Notes: generated by a model not told the origin, from the sequence alone. Positions 7,309-29,266 are shown, counted from the stretch's first letter. The stretch is DNA of 64,000 bases from an uncultured Acidobacteriota bacterium (GCA_963804915.1 CAWDSI010000005.1:46271-110270); one strand, 5' to 3'. Translations and numbers: made by a program.

Positions 7309-9742
7309 TCACTTCCGCAGGGCGGTCACAGGGTCGAGGCGCGCGGCGCGCCGGGCCGGAAACCAGTGCGCGGCGAGCGCGGCGGCGGCGAGCACGGCGG
7401 CCGCGGCCGCGAGGGAGACGGGATCGCCCGGACGAACCTCGTAGAGGATCGCCGCGAGGAAGCGCGTCGCGCCGAACGCACCGAGCAGCCCCGCGGCCAG
7501 CCCGAAGGCGATCAGGCCGGAGCCGCCGACGAGCACGAGGCGGGCGATGTCGCGGGGCGTCGCCCCGAGGGCCATGCGGATTCCGATCTCGCGGGTGCGC
7601 TGTCCGACGGAGTGCGCGACGACGCCGTAGAGGCCGAGAGCCGCGAGCGCCAGCGCGGCGAGGGCGAACGCCCCGAGGAGCCGCATGACGAAGCGCCGCG
7701 GGGCGGCGGAACGCGCCACGCGCTCGTCCATGGAGGCGACGTCGAAGATCGGGACTCCGGGATCGAGGGCGTGAACCTCGCTGCGAATCGACGCGGTCAG
7801 ACTCGCCGGGTTCGCGGTCCGGGCGAGGACCACGAGGCTCAGCAAGCCGTCGGTCACCTGCGCCTGAGGCAGATACATCTGCGGCGTCGGGGCGAGGGCG
7901 ACGTCCACGTGCCGCACGTCTCCCGCGACGCCGACGATCGTTCGCCAGGGGCCCTCGTCGGAGGCGCCGATCCGGACGCGCTCGCCGATCGGATCGCGCC
8001 CCGGGAACAGTGTCCTCGCGGTGGACTCCGAGACGATCATCACCGGCGGCGAGTCGGCCCGGTCCTCCGCCGTGAACGCCCGGCCGCGCCGGAGCGGGAC
8101 GCCCATCGCACGGAAGTAGTCGGGCGTCACCGAGTAGCGCTCGACCGAGGGATCCTCCGCCGGGTTCGGTCGCATGCGTCCCTCGACGTGGAACCCGTAG
8201 GAATCCCCGTTGCCCCCGAGCGGAACCTGGGACACGAGGGCGACCGCCTCGACCCCCGGAAGCGCGCGCACGCTTTCGAGCAGGCGGTCCTGGAACGTCA
8301 CGACGGCGGCGTCGGTGGTCGCGTCTGCGGGCGTGGCCAGGCCGAGGGTCAGCACGCGGTTGGTCGAGAAGCCGAACGGCGTATCGAGGAGCCGCGCCAT
8401 GCTGCGCACCATGAGGAACGCGCCCGAGACGAGCATGACCGCGAGGGCGAGCTCCGCGACAGTCAGGATCCGGCGCGCCCGCGAGACTCCGGAAGCGGCG
8501 CTGCCGCGCGACTCCGAGGCGAGGGTCGCCGAGAGGCGCGCCGCGGAAGCCCGGAGGGCCGGGACGCCCCCCGACAGAAACGCCGCCGTGAGCGAGGCGA
8601 GGGCCGCGAAACCGAGGACCCGCGCGTCGATCGCGATCTGGCTCCGCGCGCGGCAGCGAGACCGGTGCGAGGCGCAACAGCGTCGACTGGAGCAACCCGG
8701 CGAGCAGAAATCCGAGCGCCCCGCCGGCGGCGCAGAGGACGAGACTCTCTGCGAAGAGCTGCCGGACCAGGCGTCCGCGGCTCGCACCGAGGGCGCTCCG
8801 AATGGCGAGCTCCGGACCGCGGCGGAGCGAGCGGGCGAGCGTCAGGTTCGCGACGTTGGCGCACGCGATGAGCAGGACGAAACCGACGGCGCCGACGAGA
8901 ACGATGAGCGGCGTTCGCAGCCCGGAGGTCACCTCGCGCGAAAGGGGAGCGACGTCCATGGAGCCTTCCGCGTACTCCTGCGGATGCTCGAGCGCGAGTC
9001 TCCGGCGGATGCCGTCGAGGTCCGCCCGAGCCTGCTCGAGCGTCACGCCCGGCGCCACGCGGCCGAGGGCCTTCAGGTGCTGGCAGCTGTGGCAGGCCTG
9101 CGGAAGGCTGAGGTCGTAGCCGATGGGGGCCCAGAGCCGCGCCGGCTTGTAGTAGCGGGCCGAGACCAGGGGCTCGAAATCGGGGGGAAGGACGCCGATG
9201 ACGCGGTAGCTGTTCCCGTCCATCCGGACGACGCGGCCCACGACCGACGGGTCCGCGCCGAAGCTCTGGCGCCAGAGCCCGTCGCTCAGGATGACGACGC
9301 GCCAGGAGTCCGGGCGGTCGTCCTCCGGACGGAAATCCTGGCCGAGCGCCGGACGCACGCCCAGCATCGAGAAGTAATTCGCGCTCACGCGCATCGCGGG
9401 AAGGAGCTCGGCGACGCCGTCGGTCACGAGCGTGGGTTGCCAGAACCGGACGGCCGCCATCGTGTCGAACGTGCGGTTGCGGTCGCGCAACTCCACGTAG
9501 TTCGCGAAGCCGACGTTGCCCGGAGAGCCGCCTCCGGGCGACTCGTTCCGGTCGCCGACCATCACCAGACGGTCGCCGCCGGCATACGGAAGCGGCCGCA
9601 GGAGCACGGCGTCGAGGACCGAGAAGATCGCGGTGCTCGCGCCGATCCCGAGGGCCAGCGTCGCGAGCGCGACGGCCGCATACCCCGGGCTCTTCCGCAG
9701 CGTTCGTGCCGCGTAGCGCAGATCCTGGAGGAATCCGTTCAT
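7309..9742 (-). CDS. ADOP-family duplicated ABC permease, apparent frameshift near 8645
   Basis: N-half in ORF 7304..9742 ([20 protein letters not shown]...LAPVSLPRA), C-half in ORF 7309..8787 ([11 protein letters not shown]...[10 protein letters not shown]). Confidence 0.9.
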
Positions 9743-12862: not shown

Positions 12863-15254
12863 CTACTCCGCCCGCAGCGCCCGCATCGGATCGATCGCGG
12901 CCGCGCGCCGCGCCGGGATCCAGCAGGCGAGAGCGGCGCAGGCCGCGAGGACCAGGCCGACGGTGGCGTAGGTCGCGGGGTCCGCCGCGCCGATGCCGTA
13001 GAGGAAGCTCGAGAGGACGCGGCTCGCCGCGAGCGCGCCGGCGATCCCGATCAGCAGACCGATGGCGACCAGGCGCATCCCTTCCGCGAGCAGGCCGCTG
13101 ACGACCCGGCGGGGCTCCGCCCCGAGCGCCATGCGCACCCCGATCTCCGCCGTCCGCTGACGCACGGCCTGGCTCATGACGCCGGCGATGCCGACCGAGG
13201 CGAGCAGGAGCGCCAGCGCCGCGAACACGGAAAGCAGCTGCGTCCGGAAGCGCTCGCCGCCGAGCGAGGACGTCACGATGGAGCCGAGCGAGCGGGCGCC
13301 GGGAACGGGGATCAGGGATCGACGGCGTGCACCTTCTCCCGCACGAGCGCCGCGAGGGCGGAGTCGCCGTTCGTTCCCCGGACGACGATCTCCATCCAGC
13401 GCTTCCACGGCTGGCCCGACTGGGCGTACGGCGTGTAGACGGCCGGCTCGTCCGGATGTCCGAGGCCGAAGTGCCGAACGTCGCCGACGACGCCGACGAT
13501 CTCGATCCATTGGACTTCTTCCTGGCGGGCCCAGCGGATCCGCGCTCCGACGGGGCTCGCGCCGGGGAAGTACTGGCGGACGAAGCTCTCGTTCACGACG
13601 CCGACCAGCGGGGCACCTTCGCGGTCCGAGGGGAGGAAGTCCCGTCCCGCCTTCCGGGGGATCCCCATCACGCCGAAGTAGTCGCCCATGACGCTGCGCG
13701 AATAGAGCTCGGGCTCGTCGCCGACGGCGATCGGAGGACGGCCCTCGATCACGAAGTTGTGGTTGAGCGCCTGGCCGGTCAGCGGGACTTCGCTGATCAT
13801 CGCGGCGGACACGCCCGGAGCCGCACCGATCTCGGCGAGGACGCGCTCCCGGAAGCGCGTCTGCGCCGGGATCTCCCCGTAGCGCGACTCGGGCAGATCG
13901 ATGCGCGCGGCGACGGCGTTTCCGGTCGAGAAGCCCGGCCGCACGGTGCGCAGCCGCCAGAGCGCGTGCAGGAGCAGGCCGGCGCAGACGAGGAGCACCA
14001 TGGCCACCGCCATCTCGGCGACCACGAACGCGTCGCGGAGCCGTGCGGTCGCCAGTCCGCCGTGCCCGCGCGGGCCCGCGAGCCCGGGAGCAAATCCACG
14101 GCCGGACGCCTTCCACGCGGGCAGGATCCCGAACGCGATTCCGGTCAGCATCGAGATGGCCGCCGTGAAAATGACGACGCGTCCGTCGATGCCGACGCCT
14201 TCGAGCCGAGGGAGCGCGTCCGGCATCGCGGCCAGCAGGACCTGTGTGCCCCAGGCCGCGAGCAGGATCCCGCACGCGCCTCCGGCGAGCGCGAGGACGA
14301 GGCTCTCGGTCAGAATCTGCCGCACCAGACGGCCGCGGCTCGCTCCGAGCGCCGTGCGCACGGCGAGCTCCGCGCGTCGCGACGACGCTCTCGCGAGGAG
14401 GAGGTTCGCAAGATTCGCGCAGGCGATCAGGAGAACGAGGCCGACCGCGCCCGCCAGGATCCACAACGGCCGCCGGCTCTCGCCGACGATTCCATCGAGC
14501 AGAGCGACGAAGTCCGGCCGCAGAGACTTGTCCTCGTCGGGATGCTCGACGGCGAGGCGCTTCATCGCCGCGTCCAGATCGGCGCGCGCGGCCGCGGCGG
14601 AGACGCCGGGCGCGAGACGGAGCACGCTCCGCAGCATGTGCGCGCCGCGGGCCTGCGCCGCCTGCGGATAGGCCACCTCGATCGGCGTGAAGACGTCGGC
14701 CGGGATATCGGGAAGCCGGAACTCCGGCGCGAGCACCCCGACGACCGTGTAGGGGACGCCGCCGAGCGTGATCGCCTGGCCGAGGATCCCGCGGTCGCCG
14801 GCGAACTGGCTCTGCCAGAAACCGTAGGACAGCGTGACGACGCGCTCGCCGCCCGGCACGTCGTCGCGTCTTCGCGAGCGGGCGCCCCAGGGCCGCGCGC
14901 GCCCCGAGCGCTTCGAAGAGCTCGCCCGCGACGAGCGCGGCTTCGAGTTTGATCGGCTCGCCGCCGCCCGTCAGATCGAAGGTCATGGGCGAAGCGCCGC
15001 CCATGGCGGCGAACGAGCGCGTGGACGCCCGCAGATCGGCGAGCTCGGGGGCCGACAGGTTGCCCTTCGAGCGCGACCAGGCGGGACGCCTCCGGGTAGG
15101 GAAGCGGCGCGAGCAGGACTCCCTGGATCACGCTGAAAATCGCCGTGTTGGCGCCGATGCCGAGCGCGAGGGTCGCGATGGCGGTCAGGGTGAACCCCGG
15201 GCTCTTCCCCAGAGTCCTCAACGCGTATTTCAGATCCTGAGCCAGAGCCCCCAT
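12863..15254 (-). CDS. ADOP-family duplicated ABC permease with three apparent frameshifts (~15062, ~14868, ~13315)
   Basis: Pieces in ORFs 14562..15254 ([16 protein letters not shown]), 12863..15004 (short N-part and C-terminal [10 protein letters not shown]) and 13312..14859 (middle) join into one full-length permease. Confidence 0.85.
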
Positions 15255-17840: not shown

Positions 17841-20255
17841 TTACTCCTGTCGAAGGGCTTGCGAAGGATCGATCCGCGCGGCACGGCGTGCGGGAAGGTC
17901 CGCGGCGAGGAGCGCCGCCGCCCCGAGCAGGAGCGTGGCGCCCGCGAGGGCCAGAGGATCGGCGGGCGCGAGTCCGTAGAGCGCGCTCCGGAGCGCGAGC
18001 CCGGCGGCGGCCGAAAGCGCCAGGCCGCACGCTGCGCCGAGCGCCACCGACCCCGCCATGGACCGGAGGACCAGGCGCCGCACGTCGGAGGCGCGGGCGC
18101 CCAGCGCGAGACGGATTCCAAATTCCGCCGCGCGCCGGCGTGTCGTCCACGAGACGACCGCGTAGATGCCGACCGCGGCGAGGATGAGCGACAGGATGCC
18201 GAAGAGCCCGAGAAGCGTCGCGCCGACCCGCTGCGGAAGCAGCCGCGCCGCGACGACGTCCGAGTAGGGTCCGATCTGCGTGACGGGCAGCGCGGCGTCG
18301 AGACTGCGGATCTCGCGGCGGATCGCGCCCGCGACGACGTCGGGGGCGGCGTCCGACTTCACGACCAGCGTCAGCCGCATGAGTGCGGCCGGCGGGAATT
18401 GCAGCAAAGGCGCCCAGACCTGAGGAACCGGAGTGTCCGTGAGGGACGCGGATTTCGCGTTCGCGACGACGCCGATCACGGTCCACGGCTTGTCGGCGAC
18501 GGTGATCCTCCGGCCGAGCGGGCTCGTTGCGGGCCAGTAGCGTTCCGCCATCGCGCGGTTGACGACGGCGACGCCGGCCGCGCCCGTGCGGTCGACGGCC
18601 TCGAACTCACGCCCGGCGAGCACGGGGACGCCGAGGGCCCGAAAGTACCCGGGCCCGACCGCGGCGACGTCGACCACCGGCCGCTCCCCGCGCGAGGGCG
18701 TGTAACCCTCGACCTCGACGGATTCCTCGTCCCGCGATCCCGAGAGCGGGAGGCTGCTCGTCCAGGTGGCGGCACGCACGGACGGATCCTCGGCGAGCCG
18801 GCGCGGCAGCTCCGCCGCGAAGCTCAGGGCGTGCGCCGCGTCGTATCGCGCCAGGCCCGTGTTCACGTAGGCCACAGTCACGCCCCGAGGCTCGAGACCG
18901 AGATCGATCGAGAGCGCTCGAACCAGGCTTCGGCCCAGCAGCCCCGAGGTCGCGAGCAAGGCGAGACAGAGTGCGACCTGCGCCGAGACCAGAGCCTTGT
19001 TCAGACCCGCGCCGCGCGCGATCCGGCTCGACCCGGCCGCCAGGATCGGAGCGGCCGGCGCGTTCGACGCTCGCCAGGCCGGCAGCAGTCCGAACAAGAC
19101 GCCCACGAGCCCGGCGAGAGTGGCGGCGAAGATGAAGGCCCGGGAACCGAGCTCCGGACGGAAGAGACCGAGTGTGAGGTCCTGGACGAGAGGCACCTGG
19201 ACGAGGAGCGACAGGAGCGCGCTCGCCACGACCAGTCCCGCCGCGCCGCCGGCGAGGCCGAGCAGCAGGCTTTCCGACAGGACCTGGCGGGCGATGCGTC
19301 CCCGGCTCGCGCCGAGCGCCTGACGGACGGCGATTTCCTTCTGACGCGCAGCGCCTCGGGCCAGCAGAAGGTTCGCGAGATTCGCGCACGCGATCAGCAG
19401 GGCGGTGAGGACGGCGCCCGCGAGCAAAGCGAAGATGCGCGGCGGGCCGAACTCCTCGTTCGCGCCGGTGGCGGCCACGGTCGTCGGGACGACGGACCAT
19501 CGCGCGGCGTCGAAGTCCTCGCCGTGCGCGGCGGCGTCGCGGCGCAGGATCGTCAGGAGCGCGGCCCGGGCTTTTTCCAGAGGCACGCCGGGCTCCGGGC
19601 GCCCGAAGACCGACATCCAGCCCCAGTTGCGGGAGTGGATGTCGAAGTTCGCGAGCGGACCCGTGGCCAGTCGCGGCCAGGTACCGACCGGCACCCAGAG
19701 ATCCGGAAAGATGGCGAACGCCGCGCCGCGGAAACCCTTCGGCGCGACGCCCACGATCGTCAGCGGTATGCCGTTGACGCGGATCGTGCGGCCCAGGATG
19801 GCCGGATCGGCTCCGAACTCGCCGGCCCAGAATCCCTCGGCGAGCACGGCCACGGCCTCGCCGCCTTCGTCCTCCGAGGGCTGAAAGAACCGGCCCAGCG
19901 CCGGTCGGGCTCCGAGGACGTCGAAGTAGTTCGAGGAGACGACGGCCCCGCCGACCATGCGCGCGTCGCCGGCGTGCGCGAGCGACATGGAGCGGTCGCT
20001 CCAGGCGGCCATCCGCGCGGTCCCCGCCGCCTCGTCGCGGATGGTCCGGAAGGTCGGGTAGGACACGGAGTCGCCCGAGAGATCCACGAGCGACGACGGA
20101 TCGGAGATGCCCGGCAGGGGCCTGAGGATCACGGCGTCGGCGAGGCTGAAGATCGCCGTGTTCGCGCCGATGCCGACGGCGAGGATCAGAATCGCGGTGA
20201 GCGTGAATCCCGGCGATCGCGAGAGCCCGCGCCAGGTTTGCCGGAGCTCACCCAT
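17841..20255 (-). CDS. ADOP-family duplicated ABC permease, ~804 aa
   Basis: [30 protein letters not shown]-terminal [14 protein letters not shown]; ATG overlaps upstream TGA. Confidence 0.95.
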   Translation of the reverse strand: MGELRQTWRGLSRSPGFTLTAILILAVGIGANTAIFSLADAVILRPLPGISDPSSLVDLSGDSVSYPTFRTIRDEAAGTARMAAWSDRSMSLAHAGDARMVGGAVVSSNYFDVLGARPALGRFFQPSEDEGGEAVAVLAEGFWAGEFGADPAILGRTIRVNGIPLTIVGVAPKGFRGAAFAIFPDLWVPVGTWPRLATGPLANFDIHSRNWGWMSVFGRPEPGVPLEKARAALLTILRRDAAAHGEDFDAARWSVVPTTVAATGANEEFGPPRIFALLAGAVLTALLIACANLANLLLARGAARQKEIAVRQALGASRGRIARQVLSESLLLGLAGGAAGLVVASALLSLLVQVPLVQDLTLGLFRPELGSRAFIFAATLAGLVGVLFGLLPAWRASNAPAAPILAAGSSRIARGAGLNKALVSAQVALCLALLATSGLLGRSLVRALSIDLGLEPRGVTVAYVNTGLARYDAAHALSFAAELPRRLAEDPSVRAATWTSSLPLSGSRDEESVEVEGYTPSRGERPVVDVAAVGPGYFRALGVPVLAGREFEAVDRTGAAGVAVVNRAMAERYWPATSPLGRRITVADKPWTVIGVVANAKSASLTDTPVPQVWAPLLQFPPAALMRLTLVVKSDAAPDVVAGAIRREIRSLDAALPVTQIGPYSDVVAARLLPQRVGATLLGLFGILSLILAAVGIYAVVSWTTRRRAAEFGIRLALGARASDVRRLVLRSMAGSVALGAACGLALSAAAGLALRSALYGLAPADPLALAGATLLLGAAALLAADLPARRAARIDPSQALRQE

Positions 20256-22756
20256 CACTCGCTCCGCAGGGCCGTGACGGGATCGACGCGGGTGGCGCGG
20301 CGCGCCGGGATCCAGCAGGCGGCGGCGGAGACGACGAGAAGGATCACGGAGACGACGGCGTACGTCATCGGGTCGCCGGCGCCGACCCCGAACAGCAGGC
20401 TCGAGAGGAGCCTCGAGAGTGCGAGCGCCGCGAGGATGCCGGCCGCGAGGCCGGCGGCGGCGAGCGCGAGACCGCGCTGCAGGACGCGGCGGACGATGTC
20501 GCCCGGAGACGCGCCGAGCGCCATCCGCACGCCGATCTCGCGCGTTCGGGCAGACACCGTCTCGGCCACGAGGCCGTAGATTCCGACGGACGCCAGAAAG
20601 AGCGCGATGGCGGCGAGCAGAGAGAGCAGCGTCGCGCCGAACCGCTCACGGGAGAACGTCCGCGCCGTCCGCATCTCCAGGGTCGTGACATCGAACACCG
20701 GCAGATTCGGAGCGAGGGCCTTGATCTCGCGCCGGACCGCCGGGGCGATGGCCGCCGGATCCCCGGACGTCTTGACGAACAGCGTCGCCCACGGGAGACC
20801 GCCCTGGAGCGTGGGGTAGTAGAGGTCGAGTTTCTGCGGCTCCCCGGGCCGTCCGTAGAGCACGTCGCCCGCGACGCCGACGACTTCGGCCGTCGCGTCG
20901 TCGGCGAAGAAGAACGAGGTCGCCGCGATGCGGCGTCCGATGGGATCCTGGCCCGGCCACAGGCGGCGCGCCGCGGTCTCGTTGATCACGACGACCTTGG
21001 GCGTGCCCTCGCGGTCCTCGGCCGTGAACGCTCGGCCTTTCTTGATCGGAATCGACAGCGTCCGGAAATAGTCCGGGCCCACGTCGTGCAGGCCGATCTG
21101 CGTGGACTCGCTCGGAAATCCTCCGCTCGTGGCCATGCGCCGGTCGTCGACCTGGCGGACGACCGCGACCATGTTGCGCGACGAGAGCGGCGAGGTCCGG
21201 CCGGTGGCTGCGCTGGTGACACCGGGCAGCGTCTTCAGGCGCTCGAGGAGCGTCCGGCGAAAGACGATGGCCCGGGCGCGGTCGTCGTCGCTGACGCCCG
21301 AGGGATCGAAGCGAAGGGTCAGCACGCCCGTCGGATCGAAGCCGGCCTGGAATCCCGAGAGGCGGGCGAGGCTCCGCGTCAACAGGCCGGCGCCCACCAG
21401 GAGGACCAGGGCCAGGGCGATCTGCACCGGCACGAGCAGGCCGCGCGCGGACAGACGCCGACTCCCGCCGTCGCCGGTCACGGCTCCGGCGCCGCCCTCC
21501 TTGAGGGCCGCCGAGAGATCGTTCCGCGACGCGTGGAGCGCGGGCGCCATGCCGAAGAGCAGCCCGGTCACGAGCGAAATGCCCAGCGCGAAGAACAGGA
21601 CGCGCGCATCGAGCACGATCGCCGAGAAGCGGAACAGAAAGGACGGATCGCCGACGTCCGACAGCCGTTCGAGGCGCGAGAGCGATTCGACGCCCCAGAG
21701 AGAGAAGAGGACGCCCGCGACGCCGCCGGCCAGGGAAAGCACGAGGCTTTCGGTCAGGAGCTGGCGCACGATCCGCCGCCGCGCCGCCCCGATGGCCACG
21801 CGGATCGCGACTTCGCGTCCGCGCGCGGAAGCGCGGGCCAACAGGAGCGCGGCCACGTTGGCGCAAGCGATCAGGAGGACGAAGGTGACGGCCCCGAAGA
21901 GGACGAGCACGGAGCGGCGGAGGGCCGGATCGACCCGGCTGTCGTTGAGCGGAGCGGTCGAGGCGCTCCACACCGCGCCGCTGACCTCCATCGGGTGTTC
22001 CTGCGCGATCTGCGTCCCCACGAGCTTCATTTCGGCCGCGGCCGCGCCGGGGGAGACGCCCCGTTTGAGACGGGCGACGACGTTGTGCCAGTGGTTGCCG
22101 TCCTCTTTCAGGATGTCGGGATAGAGGAAGACGTCCGCCATCGACATCGGGACCCAGATCTCGGCGTCACCGGCGAGCCCCGCGAAGCGCGGGGGCGCGA
22201 TGCCGACGACCGTCAGGGGCACGCGGTTGATTTCGATCTTCTTGCCGACGATGGACTTTTCTCCGCCGAAACGGCGGCGCCAGAGGCCGTCCGAGATCAC
22301 CGCCACGGGATGGGCGCCCGGAGCCCCGTCCTCGTCGGCCAGGAACGTCCGTCCCGCGGACGCGCCGACGCCGAGAAGCGGGAAGTAGGACGCCGACACG
22401 ATCTCGGCGACGAGCCTCTCCGGCTCCGCGACGCCGGTGAGGTTGAGGTCGAGGCGGGAGTGTCCGGCCACGGACTCGAAGGAACGCGCGTGCTTGCGCA
22501 GACTCTCGAACTTCGGCGAGGACCACGGGAAGGTCTCGGCCGTCCCGCCCTTCTCCTCGTGCGTGATCGATACGGTCATGAGCGCGTCCGGCTCCCGGTA
22601 GGGGAGCGGGCGCAGGACCGCCGCATCGAGGATCGAGAAAATCGTCGTGACCGTGCCGATCCCGAGCCCGAGCGTCAGGATCGCGACGGCGGCGAAGCCC
22701 GGGTTGCGGAGCAGCCACCGAAGCGCGTAGCGGGCGTCCTGCAATAGAGCGCCCAT
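20255..22756 (-). CDS. ADOP-family duplicated ABC permease, 833 aa
   Basis: MGALLQDARYALRWLLRNPGF starting at 22756 (TGATG overlap with the ATPase stop); C-terminal RATRVDPVTALRSE. Confidence 0.95.
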   Translation of the reverse strand: MGALLQDARYALRWLLRNPGFAAVAILTLGLGIGTVTTIFSILDAAVLRPLPYREPDALMTVSITHEEKGGTAETFPWSSPKFESLRKHARSFESVAGHSRLDLNLTGVAEPERLVAEIVSASYFPLLGVGASAGRTFLADEDGAPGAHPVAVISDGLWRRRFGGEKSIVGKKIEINRVPLTVVGIAPPRFAGLAGDAEIWVPMSMADVFLYPDILKEDGNHWHNVVARLKRGVSPGAAAAEMKLVGTQIAQEHPMEVSGAVWSASTAPLNDSRVDPALRRSVLVLFGAVTFVLLIACANVAALLLARASARGREVAIRVAIGAARRRIVRQLLTESLVLSLAGGVAGVLFSLWGVESLSRLERLSDVGDPSFLFRFSAIVLDARVLFFALGISLVTGLLFGMAPALHASRNDLSAALKEGGAGAVTGDGGSRRLSARGLLVPVQIALALVLLVGAGLLTRSLARLSGFQAGFDPTGVLTLRFDPSGVSDDDRARAIVFRRTLLERLKTLPGVTSAATGRTSPLSSRNMVAVVRQVDDRRMATSGGFPSESTQIGLHDVGPDYFRTLSIPIKKGRAFTAEDREGTPKVVVINETAARRLWPGQDPIGRRIAATSFFFADDATAEVVGVAGDVLYGRPGEPQKLDLYYPTLQGGLPWATLFVKTSGDPAAIAPAVRREIKALAPNLPVFDVTTLEMRTARTFSRERFGATLLSLLAAIALFLASVGIYGLVAETVSARTREIGVRMALGASPGDIVRRVLQRGLALAAAGLAAGILAALALSRLLSSLLFGVGAGDPMTYAVVSVILLVVSAAACWIPARRATRVDPVTALRSE

Positions 22757-23506
22757 CAGCTCACCCGGTAGCCGCTCTCCTTCAGCTCCTCCTCCGAGTG
22801 GGCGCGCTCTTCGCCCCTCTCTTCTTCGACCACGCGGCCGTCGAAGAGATGGATGGTCCGGCCCGCGTGCTTGGCGAAGCGCGGGTCGTGGGTGACCATG
22901 CAGATCGTCGCTCCGGCGCGGTGGAGGTCCTGGAGGAGGTTCATGACGGCATCGCCGTTGACGGAGTCGAGGTTTCCCGTCGGCTCGTCGGCGAGCAGGA
23001 TCAAAGGCGAGCCGGCGATGGCGCGGGCCACGGCCACGCGCTGCTGCTGGCCTCCCGAGAGCTGCGAGGGGAAGTGCTTCATCCGGTGCGCCATCCCGAC
23101 CTTCTCGAGCGACTCCTGCACGCGCTTCTTGCGCTCGTGCGAGGGCATGCCGCGGTAGGTCAGCGGCAGCTCGACGTTCTCGTAGACCGAGAGGTCGCCG
23201 ATCAGGTTGAACGACTGGAAGATGAAGCCGATCTCCCGGTTGCGGATGCGCGCTCTCTCCGAGAGCGTCAGCGCCTCGGCCGCCTTGCCGTTCAGCCAGT
23301 ACTTGCCCTCGGTGGGCGAGTCGAGCAGGCCGAGCAGCGAGAGCAGCGTCGACTTGCCGCAACCGGACGGCCCCGCGATCGACACGTACTCGCCGTGCGC
23401 GATCTCCAGGTGCACGCCCGACGAGGGCATGCGTTTCGACTTCGTCCGTGAAGAAGACCTTCGTGACGCCGTCGAGCTTGATGACCGGATGTCCGTTCGA
23501 GCTCAT
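22756..23506 (-). CDS. ABC transporter ATP-binding protein (MacB/LolD type), apparent frameshift near 23425
   Basis: MSSNGHPVIKLDGVTKVFFTDEVETHAL joined to SGVHLEI...[31 protein letters not shown]. Confidence 0.93.
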
Positions 23507-23534
23507 GCGGTTTTCTCCCATCCCCTTAAAAAAA

Positions 23535-24800
23535 TCACTTCAAGCGCACGCGGTCGTGCGCATCCCACGCGCTCATGTCCGAGAGGATCACGCGATCCCC
23601 CGGCTTCAGTCCTTCGACGATTTCCACCGTGTTGACCGAGCTCTTGCCGAGCTTGACCTTGACGCGGGTGGCCTCGTCGCCGTCCTCGTTGACGAGGAAG
23701 AGACCCACGAGGCTCTTCTCCTGTCCGAACGCGGGCCGGCCGACGTACAGGGCGTCCTTGAGACGGTCGAGCTCGATCGTTCCATCCACCGAGAGATCCG
23801 GGCGCGCTCCCTGCGGCAGCTCGCCCTCGAGGGCCACGTCCACGGTGACGGTCCCGTTCTGCGACGAGGGATCGACGCGGGAGACCTTGCCGGGCACGAT
23901 GCCGTTGCGGGTGTCGACGGACGCCGGCTGGCCGATCGCGATGTCCTTGGCCTGCGTCTCGGCGATCTTGAGCTGGGCCTTGAGCTTGTTCGGCTGGACG
24001 ACTTTCGCGAGCATGGTTCCGGGCTGCGTGAGCTGGCCGACCTGCACCGGGACCTCCTGGAGAACGCCCGGGATGGTCGCGCGGACCTTGAGCGCGTCCA
24101 TCTGGGAGTGCATCAGCTCGGCCTGCACCTTGAGCTGCTGGAAGTGCGCCTCGGCCGCCTCGAGCTGGGCCTTCGCGGAGTCCTCGGCGATCGCGAGGCG
24201 CTCCTTCTCGAGGGCGTTGCGGGTCTTGAGCTCTTCGGCGCGGACCTCCGAGAGCTTGAGGACGAGCGACGCGACGATGCCCTCCTTGTGGAGGCCTTCG
24301 TTGGTCTCCGCCTGCAGCTGGGCCTGGTGGAAGTCGGACTCGACCGTCGCGGCCCGCGCCTTCTGGTCCAGCATGTCGCGCTTCACCTGGACGCGCGAGT
24401 TCATGAGCTCCGCCTGGCCGGCCTTCATGGCCTGCTCGGCGTCGGTCGCGTCGCGTTGGAGCTCTGGGTTCGACATCTCGAGAATCACCGTGTCCGGCTG
24501 CACGAGCGCGCCGGGTTCGACAAGGAGACGCTCGACGCGGCCTTCGGTTGCGGCGGAAAGTACGCGGATCCCGGAAGACTCGACGACCAGCGCTCCCGGG
24601 CCACGGACCTGGCGCACCATGGGACCGCGCTTGACCGTGTCCATCCAGATGGTCGACTTCTCGACCGTGGGCGCCGCCGGCTTGAGCTTCGAGAGCCCGA
24701 GCGTGATGAGGAGAATCGCCCCGGCCGCCGCGGCCGCCATGACGATCCGCTTCTTGCGTTTCTTTTCGGAAAGGTCCTCTCGGATGATGTCCACGGTCAT
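23535..24800 (-). CDS. Periplasmic adaptor / membrane fusion protein (MacA/HlyD type); start may be GTG at 24794
   Basis: Basic N-terminus plus one TM, lipoyl-like halves (GRVERLLVEPG; VRATIPGVLQEV), coiled coil, C-terminal GLKPGDRVILSD. Confidence 0.92.
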   Translation of the reverse strand: MTVDIIREDLSEKKRKKRIVMAAAAAGAILLITLGLSKLKPAAPTVEKSTIWMDTVKRGPMVRQVRGPGALVVESSGIRVLSAATEGRVERLLVEPGALVQPDTVILEMSNPELQRDATDAEQAMKAGQAELMNSRVQVKRDMLDQKARAATVESDFHQAQLQAETNEGLHKEGIVASLVLKLSEVRAEELKTRNALEKERLAIAEDSAKAQLEAAEAHFQQLKVQAELMHSQMDALKVRATIPGVLQEVPVQVGQLTQPGTMLAKVVQPNKLKAQLKIAETQAKDIAIGQPASVDTRNGIVPGKVSRVDPSSQNGTVTVDVALEGELPQGARPDLSVDGTIELDRLKDALYVGRPAFGQEKSLVGLFLVNEDGDEATRVKVKLGKSSVNTVEIVEGLKPGDRVILSDMSAWDAHDRVRLK

Positions 24801-24808
24801 GGCTCAAG

Positions 24809-24823
24809 GCGAGAACCGTGCCA
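24809..24823 (-). promoter_or_regulatory. Putative sigma54 (-24/-12) promoter
   Basis: Minus strand reads TGGCACGGTTCTCGC, matching TGGCAC-N5-TTGC with one mismatch and exact GG-N10-GC spacing. Confidence 0.7.
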
Positions 24824-24905
24824 GGGGTGGGCCACTGTAAGTGTCTTGAAACAAAGGCCTTCGTGTCGACGCATCGTGCCCTTTTGACCGGCTGCGGGAT
24901 GCGGG

Positions 24906-24921
24906 TGTCCGATTCCGGACG
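24906..24921. promoter_or_regulatory. Palindromic putative enhancer-binding-protein site
   Basis: GTCCG-ATTC-CGGAC inverted repeat about 85-100 bp upstream of the sigma54-like motif. Confidence 0.5.
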
Positions 24922-24945
24922 GCCGCCCGGCTTCCGTTCAGCCGC

Positions 24946-26011
24946 TCAGCTGCGGCCGTGAATCTTCATCGAGACCAGATCGTCGACCGAGACGTTCTTG
25001 AAGCGCGCCTTCATCTTCTTCACGTAGTCGAGAGACACGTCGTGGATGCACATCGAGACGAGCTCGTCGGCGGATACGTCGCGGTAGCCGAGCTCCTGGA
25101 GGCCCCGGATGAACTCGGGCGTGACGTCGTGGATTTTCATCGAGACGAGCTCGTCCGGCGTGAGGTCGGAATACCCCAGCGTCTTCAGCTCGCGCACGTA
25201 CTCCGGGGTCGCTTCGTGGATGCTCATGGACACGAGCTCGTCGGGGGCCAGGCTCGTGTATCCGAGGGCCTTGAGCTCGCGGATCACCGCGGGCGTGACG
25301 TCGTGGATGCGCATCGACACCAGCTCATCCGCCGGAAGACGGTCGTACCCCAGCGCCTTGAGCTCCCGGATGAATGCGGGCGTGGCGTCGTGGATGCTCA
25401 TCGAGACCAGGTCGTCCGGCGAGAGTCCCGTGTATCCGAGGGCCTTGAGCTCCCGGATGAACTCGGGCCCGGCGTCATGGATGCGCATCGAGATCATGTC
25501 GTCCAGCGGAACGCGCTTGTAGCCGAGCTCCTCGAGCTCGCGGATGAACTTGCGGCTGACGTCCTGGACGGCGAGCGAAAAGACCTCGTCCGCGTCGGGT
25601 GTCCCGTAGCCCATGGACTTGAGCGCGGCGAGGTACTCGGGGTTCGGCGTGAACGTGAAACGGCCCGAGCCGCCGGCCTGATCGAGCTGACCTTCGAAGG
25701 CGATCGTCCCGGCGTCGCGCACCATCTGGAACGAGGCGGGAACGTCGGCGGCGCCGGACGGCCGGGCGAGACCCTGGAAGTCTTTGACGTGGTAGCTGTT
25801 CGAGCTCGACCAGTTCCAGTGGCCGCGGCCTTCGGTCCGGCGCTTGAGCGTGAGCTCCATCGAGCCGTCGGCGTTGAAGTCGATCAGCCAGCGGCCCGCG
25901 GTGCCGGGCGCCTGTTCCGTTGCCGTTGCCGGCGAGCAGAAGCGCGGGCGAGAGCAGGAGCAGGGCCGCCAGGATGCGGCGAATCGTCGGGATGCGGGCA
26001 GGCGTGGTCAT
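24946..26011 (-). CDS. Exported protein with eight 29-aa His-containing tandem repeats; apparent frameshift at ~25910-25933
   Basis: Signal-peptide-like MTTPARIPTIRRILAALLLLSPALLLA in ORF 25475..26011; body in 24946..25860 with repeats DELVSMxIHDxTPxFIRELKxLGY. Confidence 0.85.
24955..25610 (-). repeat. 87-bp (29-aa) coding tandem repeat, ~8 copies
   Basis: SMxIH motif recurs about every 29 aa; identical 18-mer tccgagggccttgagctc at 25261 and 25435 (174 bp apart). Confidence 0.9.
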
Positions 26012-27691
26012 GGATTCTCCTTCTCGTCTTCCTTCCCGAAGATGCGGGTTTCGATGACGTCGTCGGCCGAGAGGCGGCCGCCGGCGCTCTCGTTGATGGA
26101 GCGGATGTAGGCGGGCGTGACCCCGTGGACGCGGAAGGCGACCAGCGCGTCGGCGTCGATGTCCTTGTAGCCGAGAGTCTGGATCTCCTTGACGTACTGC
26201 GGCGTGACGCCGTGGATCCGAAACGCCACCGCGTCATCGGCCGAGAGGTCGCTGAGTCCGAGGCCCCGCAGCTCGCGGACGAGCCCCGGAGTGACGCCGT
26301 GAATCTTGAAGGCCACGCAGTCCTCGAGCGACACAGTTCCGAAGAGCTCCTTCATCTGGCGGATCTCGTCGGTCGAGACGTCGTGCACGCGCAGCGCGAT
26401 CAGGTCGTCCGCCGAGAGCTTCGTGAAGCCGAGCGCCTCGATCGCGTCGATGAACTCGGGGGTGACGCCGTGGATGCGGAAGGCCACGAGCTGATCGGGC
26501 GTGAGGAGTCCCTGGGGCCGGACCTTTCCGGACGTGCCCGCGGCCTTCGGCCGCGGCGCCGGCTGCGGAGTCAGCGCGGCGCGCGGAGTCGGGGCGGGCG
26601 CCGGCGCTGCCTGGACGGACGCCGTCGCGACGTGGACCGGAGCGACGACGCCGGATCCGGCGCTCGCCGCGAGGGCTCCGCCCAGCGCCACGATCGCGGC
26701 GACCGGTCGAGCCGTCGTGCGAGGCTCATTTCTCGCCGTGTCGGAGGGAAGGAGGCGCGCGATGCGCTGGCGAAGCCGGCCGTCGCCGTAAAGTGCGACG
26801 GCGAGCTTCGGGGCGACGGAGGCGGCGACGGCGGGGCGCCGCTCTTCCAGAGCCACGAGCGCCCGCGCATACCGGCTGCGCGTCGCCGGTGGCCTCGACC
26901 GCCAGATCGTCGCACGCGTTCTCCCGCTCGATGCGGATGCGGTGAGAGACCCACCAGACCGCAGGATGGTAGAAGAGGAGCGTCTCGGCCGCGACCTGCA
27001 GCAGGTTGACCAGGAAGTCGCGGCGCCGCACGTGGGCGAGCTCGTGAGCGAGCAGAGCGTCGAGCTGGTCCGGAGTCATCCCGGTCGCGAGGCCCGCCGG
27101 CAGGAGCACGACCGGACGAAGGATCCCGATCGCCGAGGGCACTTCGATGCGCAGCGACTCGAGGAGCGCGACGGGTTTCCGGATCGCGAGCCGGCGCGCG
27201 AGCTCCCGGGCCCGTGTCTCCCAGGCCGCCGGCGCGGGCCGCGTGTCGCGACGCGCGAGCCGGCCGGCCACGACCCAGCCTCCGGCGGCGCGCACCGCGA
27301 GCAGCCCGACGCCCGCGATCCAGCCGAGCACGATCCAGGGCGCGAAGCGCGCCAGCGCGTCGGAGGATTCGGCGAACGGGGAAGGCATCTCCGCCTGCCG
27401 CGAGCCCGCGTCCGACCTGCCCGGCTCGAACCGGGCGAAAGACGGTTCGGGGACAGCCCCCGGCCGCGGCCGGTTCGCGAGGACGCGTGCGGTCATCAGA
27501 GGCATCGCGAGCATGAGGAGGAGGGCCGCGCAGGCGGCCGTGTAGCGCGCCCGCGCGCTCGATCGGGCCAGCAGGGAATTGACCGCCGCGAGAAGCGCCG
27601 CGACGAGAGCGCCCTGCCACACGAAGTGGAGGAGCGACAGCGCGAGCGTCAGGGCCTGCGGACGCGCGATCCCGTCGAAGACAGCCGTCAT
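26008..27691 (-). CDS. M56-family (BlaR1/MecR1-like) membrane metalloprotease with C-terminal 29-aa repeats; apparent frameshift near 26875
   Basis: LLHFVWQG, HELAHVRRRD zinc motif, FYHPAVWW, ERENACDD; then YARALVALEE, hydrophobic segment, Pro/Ala linker and 5-6 AFRIHGVTP repeats. Confidence 0.9.
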
Positions 27692-28122
27692 GACCGATTC
27701 CCCCTTTCCTTTTCCATGTCGTCTTCCATGTCGTCCAGAAGTCGCCGGATGTTCGCGATTTCCTCGGGAGAAGCGCGCCGCGAGGAGAGGGCCTGCTGCA
27801 CCAGGCGGGCCGCCGAACCGGCGAACGCGCGGTCCAGAAGATCCGCGACGAGCCGACGCTGAGTGCGCTCGGCGGGAGCGGAGGCCGCGTAGACATGGGC
27901 CCGCTCGGTCTCGTCGCGCCGGACGAGACCCTTCTCGGCCATGATCTGGAGCACCTTCAGGACCGTCGTGTAGCCCACGGGCCGGGACCCGGCCATGGCT
28001 TCGTGGACGGCGCGCACGGTCGAAGGTCCCTGTTTCCAGAGAATTCCGAGGATTTCGAGCTCGGCCTCGGTCGGACGGGGAGGCGGTGCGGCTGCGGGTC
28101 CGGATGCGGATCGTCGGGCCAT
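27688..28122 (-). CDS. BlaI/MecI/CopY-family transcriptional repressor
   Basis: PTEAELEILGILW, GPSTVRAVH, YTTVLKVLQIMAEKGLV, RAHVY; stop overlaps the M56 start. Confidence 0.95.
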   Translation of the reverse strand: MARRSASGPAAAPPPRPTEAELEILGILWKQGPSTVRAVHEAMAGSRPVGYTTVLKVLQIMAEKGLVRRDETERAHVYAASAPAERTQRRLVADLLDRAFAGSAARLVQQALSSRRASPEEIANIRRLLDDMEDDMEKERGNRS

Positions 28123-28146
28123 CGGTGCGGGTCCTCCACCGGGTAG

Positions 28147-28176
28147 TACGACGAAGTTAGTACGAGGTTCTTCGTA
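28147..28176. promoter_or_regulatory. Tandem BlaI-type operator
   Basis: TACGA-N6-TAGTA (28147-28162) overlapping a perfect TACGA-N6-TCGTA (28161-28176), 25-55 bp upstream of the repressor start. Confidence 0.7.
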
Positions 28177-28213
28177 TTTCGAGGATTCGACCTCGGCCGG
28201 GCCGCGGAGGGCT

Positions 28214-29266
28214 CTAGGCGGGCGTGCGCTCGGGTGCCTGCGGTGCGGACCAGCGAAGCGATTCGTCGAGCCGTCCCGAAGCGAGGAGTCCGCGGAGGCT
28301 GTCGATCCTCCGATACTTCGGTCCCTCGAAGTCTTCGAGTTTCAGGTCACTCTTCCGATAGGCCTCGTAGAGCTCGCGGGCGCCGTCCCGCACCGTCCAC
28401 TTCGGACGGAAGGCCGGAACCTGCCGTGCGATCTTCTCGAAGCTGACGCGGTAGGAGCGGGTGTCGGGACCGGCGCCTTCGGCAAATTCGATCTCGCAAT
28501 TCGGGACCGTCTCTCCGACGATCTCGGCGATCTGGCGGATCTGGAAGTTCTCGTCGGTGCGGCCGACGTTGAAGACCTCGGCGTGCACGGCCTCGCGCGG
28601 CGCCTCGAGGACCGCGAGAAACGCCCGCGAGATGTCCTCGATGTGGACGAGCGGACGCCAGGGGGTGCCGTCGCTCTTGAGATGGATGCGGCCTGTGGTC
28701 ACGGCCCAGGCCGCCAGGTTGTTGAGAACGATGTCGAAGCGGTGCCGGGGGGACACGCCGTATGCCGTGGTCGGACGCAGGAACGTCGGACTGAACGCCG
28801 CATCGGCGAGCGCGGAGATGTCGTCCTCCGCGCGCACCTTCGAAACGCCATAAGGCGTCACGGGGTTCAGCGGCGACGTCTCGTCGACCATGGCACCTCC
28901 CGCGGCGCCGTAGTTGCTGCAGGAGGAGGAGAACAGGAAGCGCGGAACGCCCGCCGTCTTTGCGACGCGGGCCAGATGCACGGACCCGCGGTGATTGATC
29001 GCATGGGTCACTTCCGGGTTGAGGTCGCCGAGAGGATCGTTCGAGAGGGCGGCCAGGTGGACGACGGCGTCGAAGCCTTCGAGGTCTGCCGGGGTCGCTT
29101 CGCGCAGATCGCGGCGAATCGTCGGGATCTCCGGAACCGACCCGACGAAGGTGCAGGCCGCGTAGAAATCGGTGTCGAGCCCGACCACATCGTGGCCCGC
29201 AGCCGAGAGCATCGGTCCCATGACCGTGCCGATGTAGCCCCGGTTCCCGGTCAGGAGAACGCGCAT
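28214..29266 (-). CDS. NAD-dependent epimerase/dehydratase (extended SDR)
   Basis: [10 protein letters not shown] Rossmann motif, [20 protein letters not shown] catalytic motif. Confidence 0.93.

Follow-up and report, generated by a model that had tools for sequence, protein, structure and literature searches.

A BlaI-M56 operon of an uncultured Acidobacteriota bacterium with a predicted repeat-solenoid sensor and a co-encoded exported protein of the same repeat

What might a BlaR1-type membrane protease perceive when a repeat array stands where a penicillin-binding domain would be expected, and why is an exported protein of the same repeat encoded directly behind it? These questions are raised by a locus at positions 24,946 to 28,176 of a stretch of 64,000 nucleotides (nt) from an uncultured Acidobacteriota bacterium (GCA_963804915.1 CAWDSI010000005.1:46271-110270; the whole stretch is called the window, and positions are counted from its first letter). 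The initial annotation, made from the sequence, described a BlaI/M56 signalling module whose sensor consists of repeats in place of a penicillin-binding domain and which also encodes an exported protein built from these repeats, and both the families and the repeats were recovered here. The reading that we favour, and to which we give an even chance of being right, is that of an autoregulated three-gene BlaI/BlaR1-type regulated-proteolysis operon with a split, non-beta-lactam sensor. Its parts are as follows.

27688..28122, minus strand: BlaI/MecI/CopY-family winged-helix repressor of 144 amino acids (aa), Pfam PF03965 (Penicillinase_R).
26008..27691, minus strand: M56 (BlaR1-type) membrane zinc protease (PF05569), its sensor a periplasmic repeat array; the assembly breaks the frame near 26877/26878.
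26011..26508, minus strand: periplasmic sensor of the M56 protein, 5.5 repeats of 29 residues behind the fourth transmembrane helix (TM4) and an Ala/Pro-rich linker, from repeat reading and model.
24946..26011, minus strand: gene 3, a Sec-exported protein in which a signal peptide precedes a beta domain of six strands and about eight repeats; frame break near 25913-25916.
25645..25905, minus strand: beta domain of gene 3, six strands with conserved GRW and RDAGT..FEG..GG.G.F.F motifs, from model and invariant alignment columns.
24949..25644, minus strand: repeat solenoid of gene 3, from model and repeat alignment.
28161..28176: predicted BlaI operator, site 1, located 39 nt ahead of the blaI start; palindrome TACGAGGTTCTTCGTA, consensus TACGAA-N4-TTCGTA.
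28147..28162: predicted BlaI operator, site 2, a degenerate palindrome with one mismatch, overlapping site 1 by two bases.

The minus strand of this GC-rich window (0.64-0.74) carries blaI, the M56 gene and gene 3 alike, and the 4-nt overlaps reported to couple them were both found, the blaI stop and M56 start sharing an ATGA at 27691-27688 and the M56 stop and gene 3 start another at 26011-26008. The repressor matched PF03965 over residues 18-130 (94.3 bits against a cut-off of 22.6, E 8.1e-27), with 2g9w as the closest solved structure (E 6.4e-12) and Staphylococcus aureus BlaI, 1sd4, at E 1e-3. Against the CopY/TcrY profile TIGR02698 it gave 38.2 bits, which does not reach the equivalog cut-off of 121.95, the N-terminal domain matching at 1.5e-09.

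The N-terminal part of the M56 protein matched PF05569 (101.6 bits against a cut-off of 31, E 5.8e-29). The core is intact, with an HELAH motif and an ERENACDD block, and H216, E217 and H220 are invariant in the M56 alignment. In its continuation, read in the frame of 26008..26856, a 'YARALVALEE' block is followed by the fourth membrane helix, the Ala/Pro-rich linker and the repeats. In Pfam the M56 protein matched no transpeptidase or penicillin-binding protein family, PF00905 included, and against NF000326 (blaR1_generic) it scored 79.8 bits where the cut-off is 400, with a match confined to 251 N-terminal positions of the 585 in the profile. The sensor holds five full 29-aa repeats (one of them of 28 aa) and a C-terminal half repeat, in line with the five to six first counted. 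Gene 3 encodes, after its signal peptide, a domain of about 88 residues and then a leading single helix, seven full repeats and a trailing half repeat, so that the original figure of eight is a fair one. A hydrophobic N-terminal signal was present in 85 of 88 gene 3 homologues examined, and a lipobox-like motif in one.

As assembled, the M56 gene and gene 3 each contain one frame change, that of gene 3 falling between the signal peptide and the body and leaving the signal peptide in another frame. Taken at face value, the two breaks shown by the assembled window would make these genes decaying pseudogenes or call for programmed frameshifting, a reading that we hold to be extremely unlikely. 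Contigs from independent soil and rhizosphere metagenome runs were placed on the window. At 25913/25916, two extra bases are present in X1 and X4 contigs (one each), which make up the whole depth there; at 26877/26878, three contigs from runs X1 and X2 have one base fewer, and the share of contig depth without this deletion speaks for a genuine break. The contig changes at either site restore the reading frame, so that near-identical independent contigs read through both. An intact M56 orthologue, P0122 (560 aa, 93% identical over the C-terminal part, from a cluster of 23 sequences), likewise runs through the break without interruption with the sequence '...TGDASRYARALVELEERR...', and in P0008 (83%) and P0049 (81%) the signal peptide is in frame and joined to 'GRWLVDF...'. 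Orthologues of 93-96% identity are uninterrupted.

Furthermore, the reading frame is broken at four or more other places on this strand within 28 kb, once in the neighbouring ABC ATPase gene (near 23430) and three times in copies of ADOP permease genes (near 14870, 13313 and 8650-9640), which points to an error-prone assembly; related assemblies (P0008, P0040, P0049 and P0121) are interrupted at other places, which fits random insertion/deletion (indel) error. Both internal breaks therefore look like assembly indel errors, as the initial annotation had supposed for the M56/repeat junction, and programmed frameshifting was rejected in view of the read-through contigs, the intact orthologues and the breaks in neighbouring genes. 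Across the window assembly, indel errors amount to one per approximately 4-5 kb.

The distribution of the repeat proteins was examined at several scales. In a word-indexed protein search (8000 candidates scored, E up to 1e-3), the gene 3 query returned 357 proteins and the M56 C-terminal query, among longer proteins, 662; nearly all of these were nameless or hypothetical, or labelled M56 peptidase or 'beta-lactamase regulating signal transducer', and one bore the label of an isoprenoid enzyme. When 1.84 billion representatives were searched exhaustively with a gene 3 profile, 5203 clusters (50% identity) passed E 0.001, and 1885 were left at 1e-30. Within the phylum, 75 of 401 sampled genomes and 46 of 227 genera had a match, a tally that includes the window's genome and G024, and further members come from records that bear the labels Bacteroidota, Ignavibacteriales and Rhodothermia. 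From a scan of species-representative genomes, which found 409 stretches with a relative, the 80 loci with the best gene 3 matches were kept. Among the 69 of these with at least 3.5 kb of upstream sequence, BlaI and M56 genes stood directly upstream of gene 3 on the same strand in 51, an M56 gene alone in one and neither in 17. The triad is thus conserved and recurs widely in soil bacteria, bearing out the neighbourhood survey suggested with the initial annotation, and one carrier, Paludibaculum fermentans (L051), is cultured. Nine Blastocatellia and Pyrinomonadaceae loci (L046, L049, L052, L053, L055, L057, L058, L060 and L066) have two tandem gene 3 paralogues behind M56, the second more diverged.

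The paired palindrome TACGAA-N4-TTCGTA directly upstream of blaI recurs with the triad. In many related loci the pair flanks a TTGACA, and a second site at the equivalent place is visible in most of those compared. In the 80-locus set, each of the 53 loci that have a BlaI gene carries the motif no more than 200 nt ahead of its start, and all 86 operator sites across 1.13 Mb of loci lay upstream of blaI. A scan of the window's own genome (81% complete) gave the site at this locus and a single one-mismatch match, about one being expected by a hand estimate. In whole genomes, paired sites were found at BlaI-M56 loci only, any match having been obtained in four of the five genomes scanned. Unpaired sites were fewer than those of a reversed-pattern control in G402 and G403 and exceeded it in G401 (10 against 2, four of the ten forming two BlaI-M56 operator pairs) and G404 (3 against 1). 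The operator-based regulon search in the own genome and five others yielded nothing convincing. From this pattern, the blaI promoter is predicted to be a classical autoregulated promoter; confinement of the operator to it gives no sign of direct BlaI control of the neighbouring pump genes.

Some individual sites and pairs deserve mention. An exact TACGAAAATATTCGTA at 6052 of L082 (G404:C1:3340500-3352500) is far from the BlaI locus and lies downstream, not upstream, of a minus-strand ABC/permease cluster; it is upstream of no related gene. At 6132-8330 of L081 (G401:C2:6439000-6453000), a second BlaI-M56 pair of Paludibaculum fermentans has the same paired operator and a BlaI 68% identical to that of the window, and the tail of its M56 protein runs from a Pro/Gly-rich linker through a long stretch of charged coil into a small domain at the C-terminus, with no repeats and no gene 3. 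The window's own genome contains three BlaI-M56 pairs, and the repeat occurs solely at the window locus; the other two (G000 C11:608448-609527 and C27:75994-77251) have neither the repeat nor a TACGAA-N4-TTCGTA operator with up to one mismatch.

How gene 3 relates to the protease is indicated by the domain arrangements of its relatives. Among the 150 best representatives, which were sorted into classes, the M56 core, beta domain and repeats are combined in one protein in 57; a further 32 are long proteins with the beta domain whose M56 part was missed by the subfamily profile, 15 are window-like M56 proteins without the beta domain, 45 are short and gene-3-like, and one is of another kind. All ten long proteins tested were Pfam M56. 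In the 80 gene-3-centred loci, an M56 core was found in 59 open reading frames (ORFs) and the beta domain in 91, and no ORF had both. In nine of nine fused-type loci, chosen for their long open frames, the beta domain lies inside the sensor ORF with no gene 3 nearby, and at least four of these nine are plain two-gene BlaI-M56 operons. As judged from these architectures, the beta-plus-solenoid module is predicted to be a bona fide M56 sensor, of which the M56 protein of split systems is predicted to have lost the beta domain and kept the solenoid. Because a separate gene 3 accompanies only beta-less M56 proteins (0/59), we take gene 3 to be the half of a split sensor that acts in trans.

The following mechanism would fit this reading. 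The repressor would bind the paired TACGAA-N4-TTCGTA operators at its own promoter, while the M56 protein is predicted to combine the transmembrane and protease core of BlaR1 with a periplasmic solenoid of 29-residue two-helix repeats in place of the penicillin-binding domain. Gene 3 would be delivered to the periplasm as a free-standing form of the module that is fused to M56 as a complete sensor in many relatives, and there it may partner the beta-less M56 solenoid, either as a ligand-binding co-sensor or as a titrated modulator of either sign. A periplasmic or envelope signal would then turn on the protease, which would cut BlaI and derepress the operon. The analysis establishes the identities of the genes, the predicted topology and folds, the conserved triad, the recurrent operator, the fused and split occurrence of the module and the assembly origin of the frame breaks; that gene 3 and the M56 sensor cooperate physically, that BlaI is cleaved and what kind of signal acts are inferences from these. 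Of the roles first proposed for the soluble repeat protein, that of co-sensor gains support from the fused and split occurrence of the beta-plus-repeat module, the direction of its effect being left either way. Complex prediction between the M56 sensor (A2, residues 112-282) and gene 3 (A1) returned 0.00 in two runs without controls and has no bearing either way. An analogy may be drawn with CpxP, a small periplasmic modulator that is co-regulated with an envelope sensor and acts on its histidine kinase. In both cases the target of a small periplasmic protein would be the part of a membrane sensor that faces the periplasm; in contrast to CpxP, whose fold is unrelated, the partner proposed here carries the sensor's own repeat and the output would be proteolysis of a repressor.

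The main rival, which we consider possible but rather unlikely, takes its lead from BlaR1, whose sensor domain is kin of the beta-lactam-binding proteins that the system induces. By analogy, gene 3 may be an induced effector, a periplasmic 'sponge' that soaks up the ligand of the M56 solenoid and so provides protection and negative feedback. Gene 3 is indeed the sole non-regulatory gene of the operon, and the operator is found solely at the operon's own promoter. In eight of 12 pump-less triad loci inspected, the next gene after gene 3 (or its second copy) is on the opposite strand, so that no same-strand ORF lies directly behind, and in L019, L065, L069 and L074 a plus-strand ORF comes next. 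The tandem gene 3 copies of the Blastocatellia and Pyrinomonadaceae loci, and the gene-3-like proteins that occur alone in 17 of 69 loci, suggesting a function of their own, would also suit a sponge. However, the fused two-gene operons carry no cargo at all; the outputs of this BlaI group must therefore lie elsewhere, which weakens the argument from gene 3 as the only cargo. Moreover, the beta domain is found in M56 or in gene 3 and never in both, a pattern that the sponge does not predict.

Three points nevertheless weigh against the split sensor itself. The 17 loci with a gene-3-like protein have no BlaI or M56 gene within 8 kb and are of mixed context, which implies that the protein is able to function without an M56 sensor, and four of them (L007, L022, L024 and L031) still precede HlyD/ABC/ADOP genes. 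Secondly, simple fission does not describe the fused/split pattern, as the fused proteins are arranged TM4-beta-repeats and the split M56 retains repeats of its own. Thirdly, the 80 loci are the best gene 3 matches and the nine fused loci were picked for long frames, so that the 0/59 and 9/9 counts do not constitute an unbiased survey. Six listed loci with gene 3 and no BlaI/M56 shared no common neighbour. L007 (6677-9029) preserves the synteny of the window, with a FolD-like gene and then gene 3, but no BlaI/M56, and has a 1512-aa ORF between gene 3 and HlyD; this suggests that the regulator pair was lost or replaced in its lineage.

The repeat was then considered for what it may recognise. 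Each unit consists of helix 1 (nine residues, 'PDDLVSMRI'), a four-residue loop led by His ('HG/DVT'), helix 2 (nine residues, 'PEFIRELKA') and a seven-residue loop 'LGYxxLS'. AlphaFold2 modelling of mature gene 3 with a 37-sequence alignment gave a mean predicted local distance difference test score (pLDDT) of 96.2, with six strands in residues 1-87 followed by 16 helices, and the repeat is confidently predicted to form a two-helix solenoid (pLDDT 96). In the full-length M56 model, made on the orthologue P0122 (pLDDT 79.9), the membrane/protease core is followed by a disordered linker (below 50) and then by the solenoid, whose sensor part has 11 helices above pLDDT 90. This model matched the cryo-electron microscopy (cryo-EM) structures of S. 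aureus BlaR1, with E 9.6e-05 for 8exq, E of about 1e-4 and probability 1.00 for 8exq, 8ext, 8exp and 8exs, and a template-modelling (TM) score of 0.60 over 179 columns for 8exr_A.

The initial annotation recognised no characterised family for the repeat, and this still holds for Pfam and NCBIfam, in which only partial matches summed over the repeats were obtained, to motifs of small helical type (PG_binding_2, Post_transc_reg, UBA, RuvA_C and LytB). PG_binding_2 and Post_transc_reg exceeded their whole-protein cut-offs on gene 3 with no good single stretch. Of the peptidoglycan-binding domains, PF08823 gave 27 bits for the whole protein against a cut-off of 21.1, no single stretch passing and the best covering 33 of 74 profile positions, and PF01471 stood at E 0.032; both are partial matches added up over a repeat. 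The transcription activator-like (TAL) repeat family PF03377 matched the M56 sensor at E 2.5 (9 bits, below the cut-off of 28), and none of the matches listed for gene 3 or P0123 was to this family. Summed weak repeat matches also account for the misleading labels or Pfam tags of P0002, P0037, P0154, P0222 and P0235 (IspH/LytB, ATG5, UBA_3 and others). In the ESM Atlas only 'hypothetical protein' clusters were found, Acidobacteriota being commonest, and the recognition value of 1606 is under that of most known families.

By fold, the Foldseek matches were limited to one designed repeat protein (E 5.7e-4) and to TAL effectors (TALEs; E of about 1e-2, TM 0.24-0.29). The top of an exhaustive VIA fold search was likewise occupied by BurrH (4cj9, Z 8.3), 9lcx (7.7), dHax3 (7.5), AvrBs3 (7.5) and PthXo1 (6.4), the entries including 4hpz (7.5), 2ypf (7.5) and 3ugm (6.4), at root-mean-square deviations (rmsd) of 9-13 A; for helical repeats, Z values below about 13 are common in this search and call for caution. 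A PDB profile search at E up to 1 returned no TAL match. Near E 1e-3 its sole natural matches were to serine integrases (4bqq and others); they covered a portion of the beta domain and were taken as chance. In fold, the beta domain itself resembled small beta domains of the avidin, PAS and calycin types only weakly (Z 4-6). With TALEs and TALE-like proteins (BurrH/Bat, AvrBs3, PthXo1 and dHax3) the present proteins share tandem two-helix repeats, here predicted to build a solenoid, and a His that leads the short loop between the helices and often has Asp, Gly or Asn behind it. The TALE repeat unit, in contrast, has 33-35 residues and not 29; there is no sequence match, the Z values stay under the caution line with the large rmsd given above, the window-type proteins are periplasmic and acidic, and the residue after the His varies freely between orthologues. 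Given the missing profile match and low Z, the resemblance to TALEs is treated as an architectural lead and not as membership.

The His itself had suggested a ladder binding metal ions or a polyanion, and hence a metal or polyanion sensor, a proposal that has been weakened and that we now regard as decidedly unlikely. Its observational basis was confirmed: in the window a His occupies one fixed repeat position in five of six M56 units and seven of eight gene 3 units, and among relatives its share at this position is 95% (583 repeats) and 87% (1005 repeats), the anchor pattern having admitted only H, F, Y, Q or M there. In the window's gene 3 an Asp often follows directly, the BlaI N-terminal domain is weakly CopY-like (far under the TIGR02698 cut-off), and a copper-activated M56/BlaI pair, PetRP, has been described. 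However, the His is placed at the helix-1/loop junction, as the first residue of the short inter-helix loop. Structural His or Asn residues are found at this junction in TALE repeats. The residue after it is Gly in approximately 80% of repeats and is exchanged among Gly, Asp and Asn at the equivalent repeat of close orthologues. The best-conserved positions of the 583 and 1005 repeats are L11, V12, R15, I16, H17, G18, P21, F23 and R25, and the conserved residues other than His are at helix ends or are Arg, Asp or Glu, readable as capping or salt-bridge residues. Both solenoid domains are acidic (isoelectric points of 4.88 and 5.18), which speaks against a polyanion, and no metal-efflux gene is linked, the neighbours being of the MacB/ADOP type. 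The loop position, the Gly that mostly follows and the Gly/Asp/Asn exchange lead us to a structural reading, in which the repeat His looks like a helix-capping motif.

Residues conserved once per repeat in a long solenoid make a periodic envelope polymer conceivable as ligand. We therefore also entertain, as an unlikely but consequential idea, a TALE-like periplasmic 'reader' in which one repeat would contact one unit of such a polymer, in the envelope or outside the cell (the glycan strand of peptidoglycan, an exopolysaccharide or extracellular DNA). If so, the split sensor, made up of the M56 solenoid and the free solenoid with its beta cap, would report the state of the polymer to a BlaR-type protease. 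Regulated proteolysis would thereby gain an input logic of a new kind, and the repeats would form a new polymer-reading family outside the cytoplasm.

With respect to known systems, the locus resembles BlaR1/BlaI and MecR1/MecI of Staphylococcus aureus and Bacillus licheniformis in that a Penicillinase_R repressor adjoins an M56 zinc protease in overlapping genes, in the HExxH core, in the match of the orthologue model to the BlaR1 cryo-EM structures and in a palindromic operator at its own promoter. It differs in having an alpha-solenoid and no transpeptidase or penicillin-binding sensor, a third gene for an exported paralogue of the sensor module, and TACGAA-N4-TTCGTA as operator. Since the defining sensor domain is absent, this is not a beta-lactam-sensing BlaR1/MecR1 system (NF000326, NF033109); its family assignments place it among the non-canonical BlaIR systems. 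These include the copper-responsive PetRP of Synechocystis and, responding to signals other than beta-lactams, CenIR of C. difficile and PvmSR of P. aeruginosa, each pairing a BlaI-type repressor with an M56 protease. According to the CenIR paper, fewer than 10% of BlaR proteins contain a transpeptidase domain, and the architecture met most often has, behind the M56 domain, a C-terminal region of no identifiable domain. PetP has no C-terminal periplasmic domain and CenR has a short C-terminus predicted to be disordered, and none of PetRP, CenIR and PvmSR is described as having a repeat solenoid or a secreted sensor paralogue. The present system is set apart from these by its large, well-folded repeat sensor, its secreted paralogue and the dichotomy of fused and split forms. 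A literature search, whose scope excluded most subscription journals, found no description of the repeat or of an M56 protein with a solenoid sensor; the class may already be included under 'no identifiable domain' in the architecture tables of the CenIR paper.

The signals of systems with an M56 domain and an unassigned C-terminus are largely unknown, and the present finding defines one large class among them. It offers as handles a new, confidently folded solenoid, a precise predicted operator and a cultured carrier, and the natural occurrence of fused and split sensors makes the gating of M56 by a non-covalent signal testable. In addition, it corrects annotations such as 'beta-lactamase regulating signal transducer', 'hypothetical protein' and, in one instance, the name of an isoprenoid enzyme.

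Finally, the operon lies upstream of a permease array on the same strand, as stated at the outset; an HlyD-type adaptor and an ABC ATPase come in between. The array comprises one adaptor, two ATPases and nine ADOP permeases, the permeases spanning 3-22690. The parts nearest to gene 3 are the following.

24906..24921: palindrome GTCCG-N4-CGGAC, a candidate activator site outside the operon, 97 nt upstream of the sigma-54-type promoter.
24809..24823, minus strand: predicted sigma-54-type promoter TGGCACGGTTCTCGC, just before the HlyD start.
23535..24800, minus strand: HlyD/membrane-fusion adaptor (PF13437 3.7e-16; PF16576 3e-15; TIGR01730 114.1 bits against 94.9).
22756..23521, minus strand: MacB/LolD-type ABC ATPase (ABC_tran 2.1e-33), N-terminus in another frame.
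20255..22690, minus strand: first of nine ADOP-family duplicated permeases (TIGR03434 880.8 bits against 622.3).

This neighbourhood raises a further alternative, in our view very unlikely, that gene 3 is an accessory of the MacB/ADOP-type exporter, for example in periplasmic substrate handling, and that BlaI/M56 joined it later. Of the 68 loci whose downstream sequence reaches 3 kb or more, 25 have genes for HlyD, ATPase and ADOP behind gene 3 (21 within approximately 140-420 nt and four at 1.2-5 kb), and six more loci have a downstream ADOP permease without HlyD. L007, L022, L024 and L031 combine the pump genes with the absence of BlaI/M56 in at least 7.8 kb upstream, and L025 and L029 have pump genes with too short an upstream sequence for BlaI/M56 to be judged. 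On the other hand, among the 60 loci with both flanks, triad and pump occur together in 18, the triad only in 25, the pump only in four and neither in 13, so that 25 of 43 triads are pump-less. ADOP genes are very numerous in the Acidobacteriota phylum, nine copies being present in the window, and their adjacency to gene 3 is therefore partly expected. The pump genes also appear to have a conserved sigma-54-type promoter of their own, with an upstream palindrome, and no BlaI operator was found on the array. The linkage to an ADOP operon that had been envisaged is thus reduced to adjacency, and the array is a frequent neighbour, probably with its own promoter, and not a proven output.

The promoter was called from the sigma-54 consensus TGGCAC-N5-TTGC. 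The pattern has its sole match in the window here (0.14 expected), within the 145-nt spacer between gene 3 and HlyD. A TGGCACG-N4-TCGC block and the CG-N4-CG core of the palindrome are each present in 22 of 22 aligned gene 3/HlyD spacers, the outer base of the window's palindrome being unlike the TGT(C/T)CG of the others, and the combination of promoter and palindrome occurs once in the genome. Between 19800 and 28400, a sigma-70 consensus scan gave no sites, and five terminator-like sites were found against 3.1 expected, none of them between gene 3 and HlyD; Rfam had no match in 22000-29000 at E up to 1. Genes for GAFTGA-type activators number zero in the window, and eight such motifs are present in the genome. 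The sigma-54-type promoter ends approximately 10-15 nt ahead of the HlyD start, which would make the transcript nearly leaderless.

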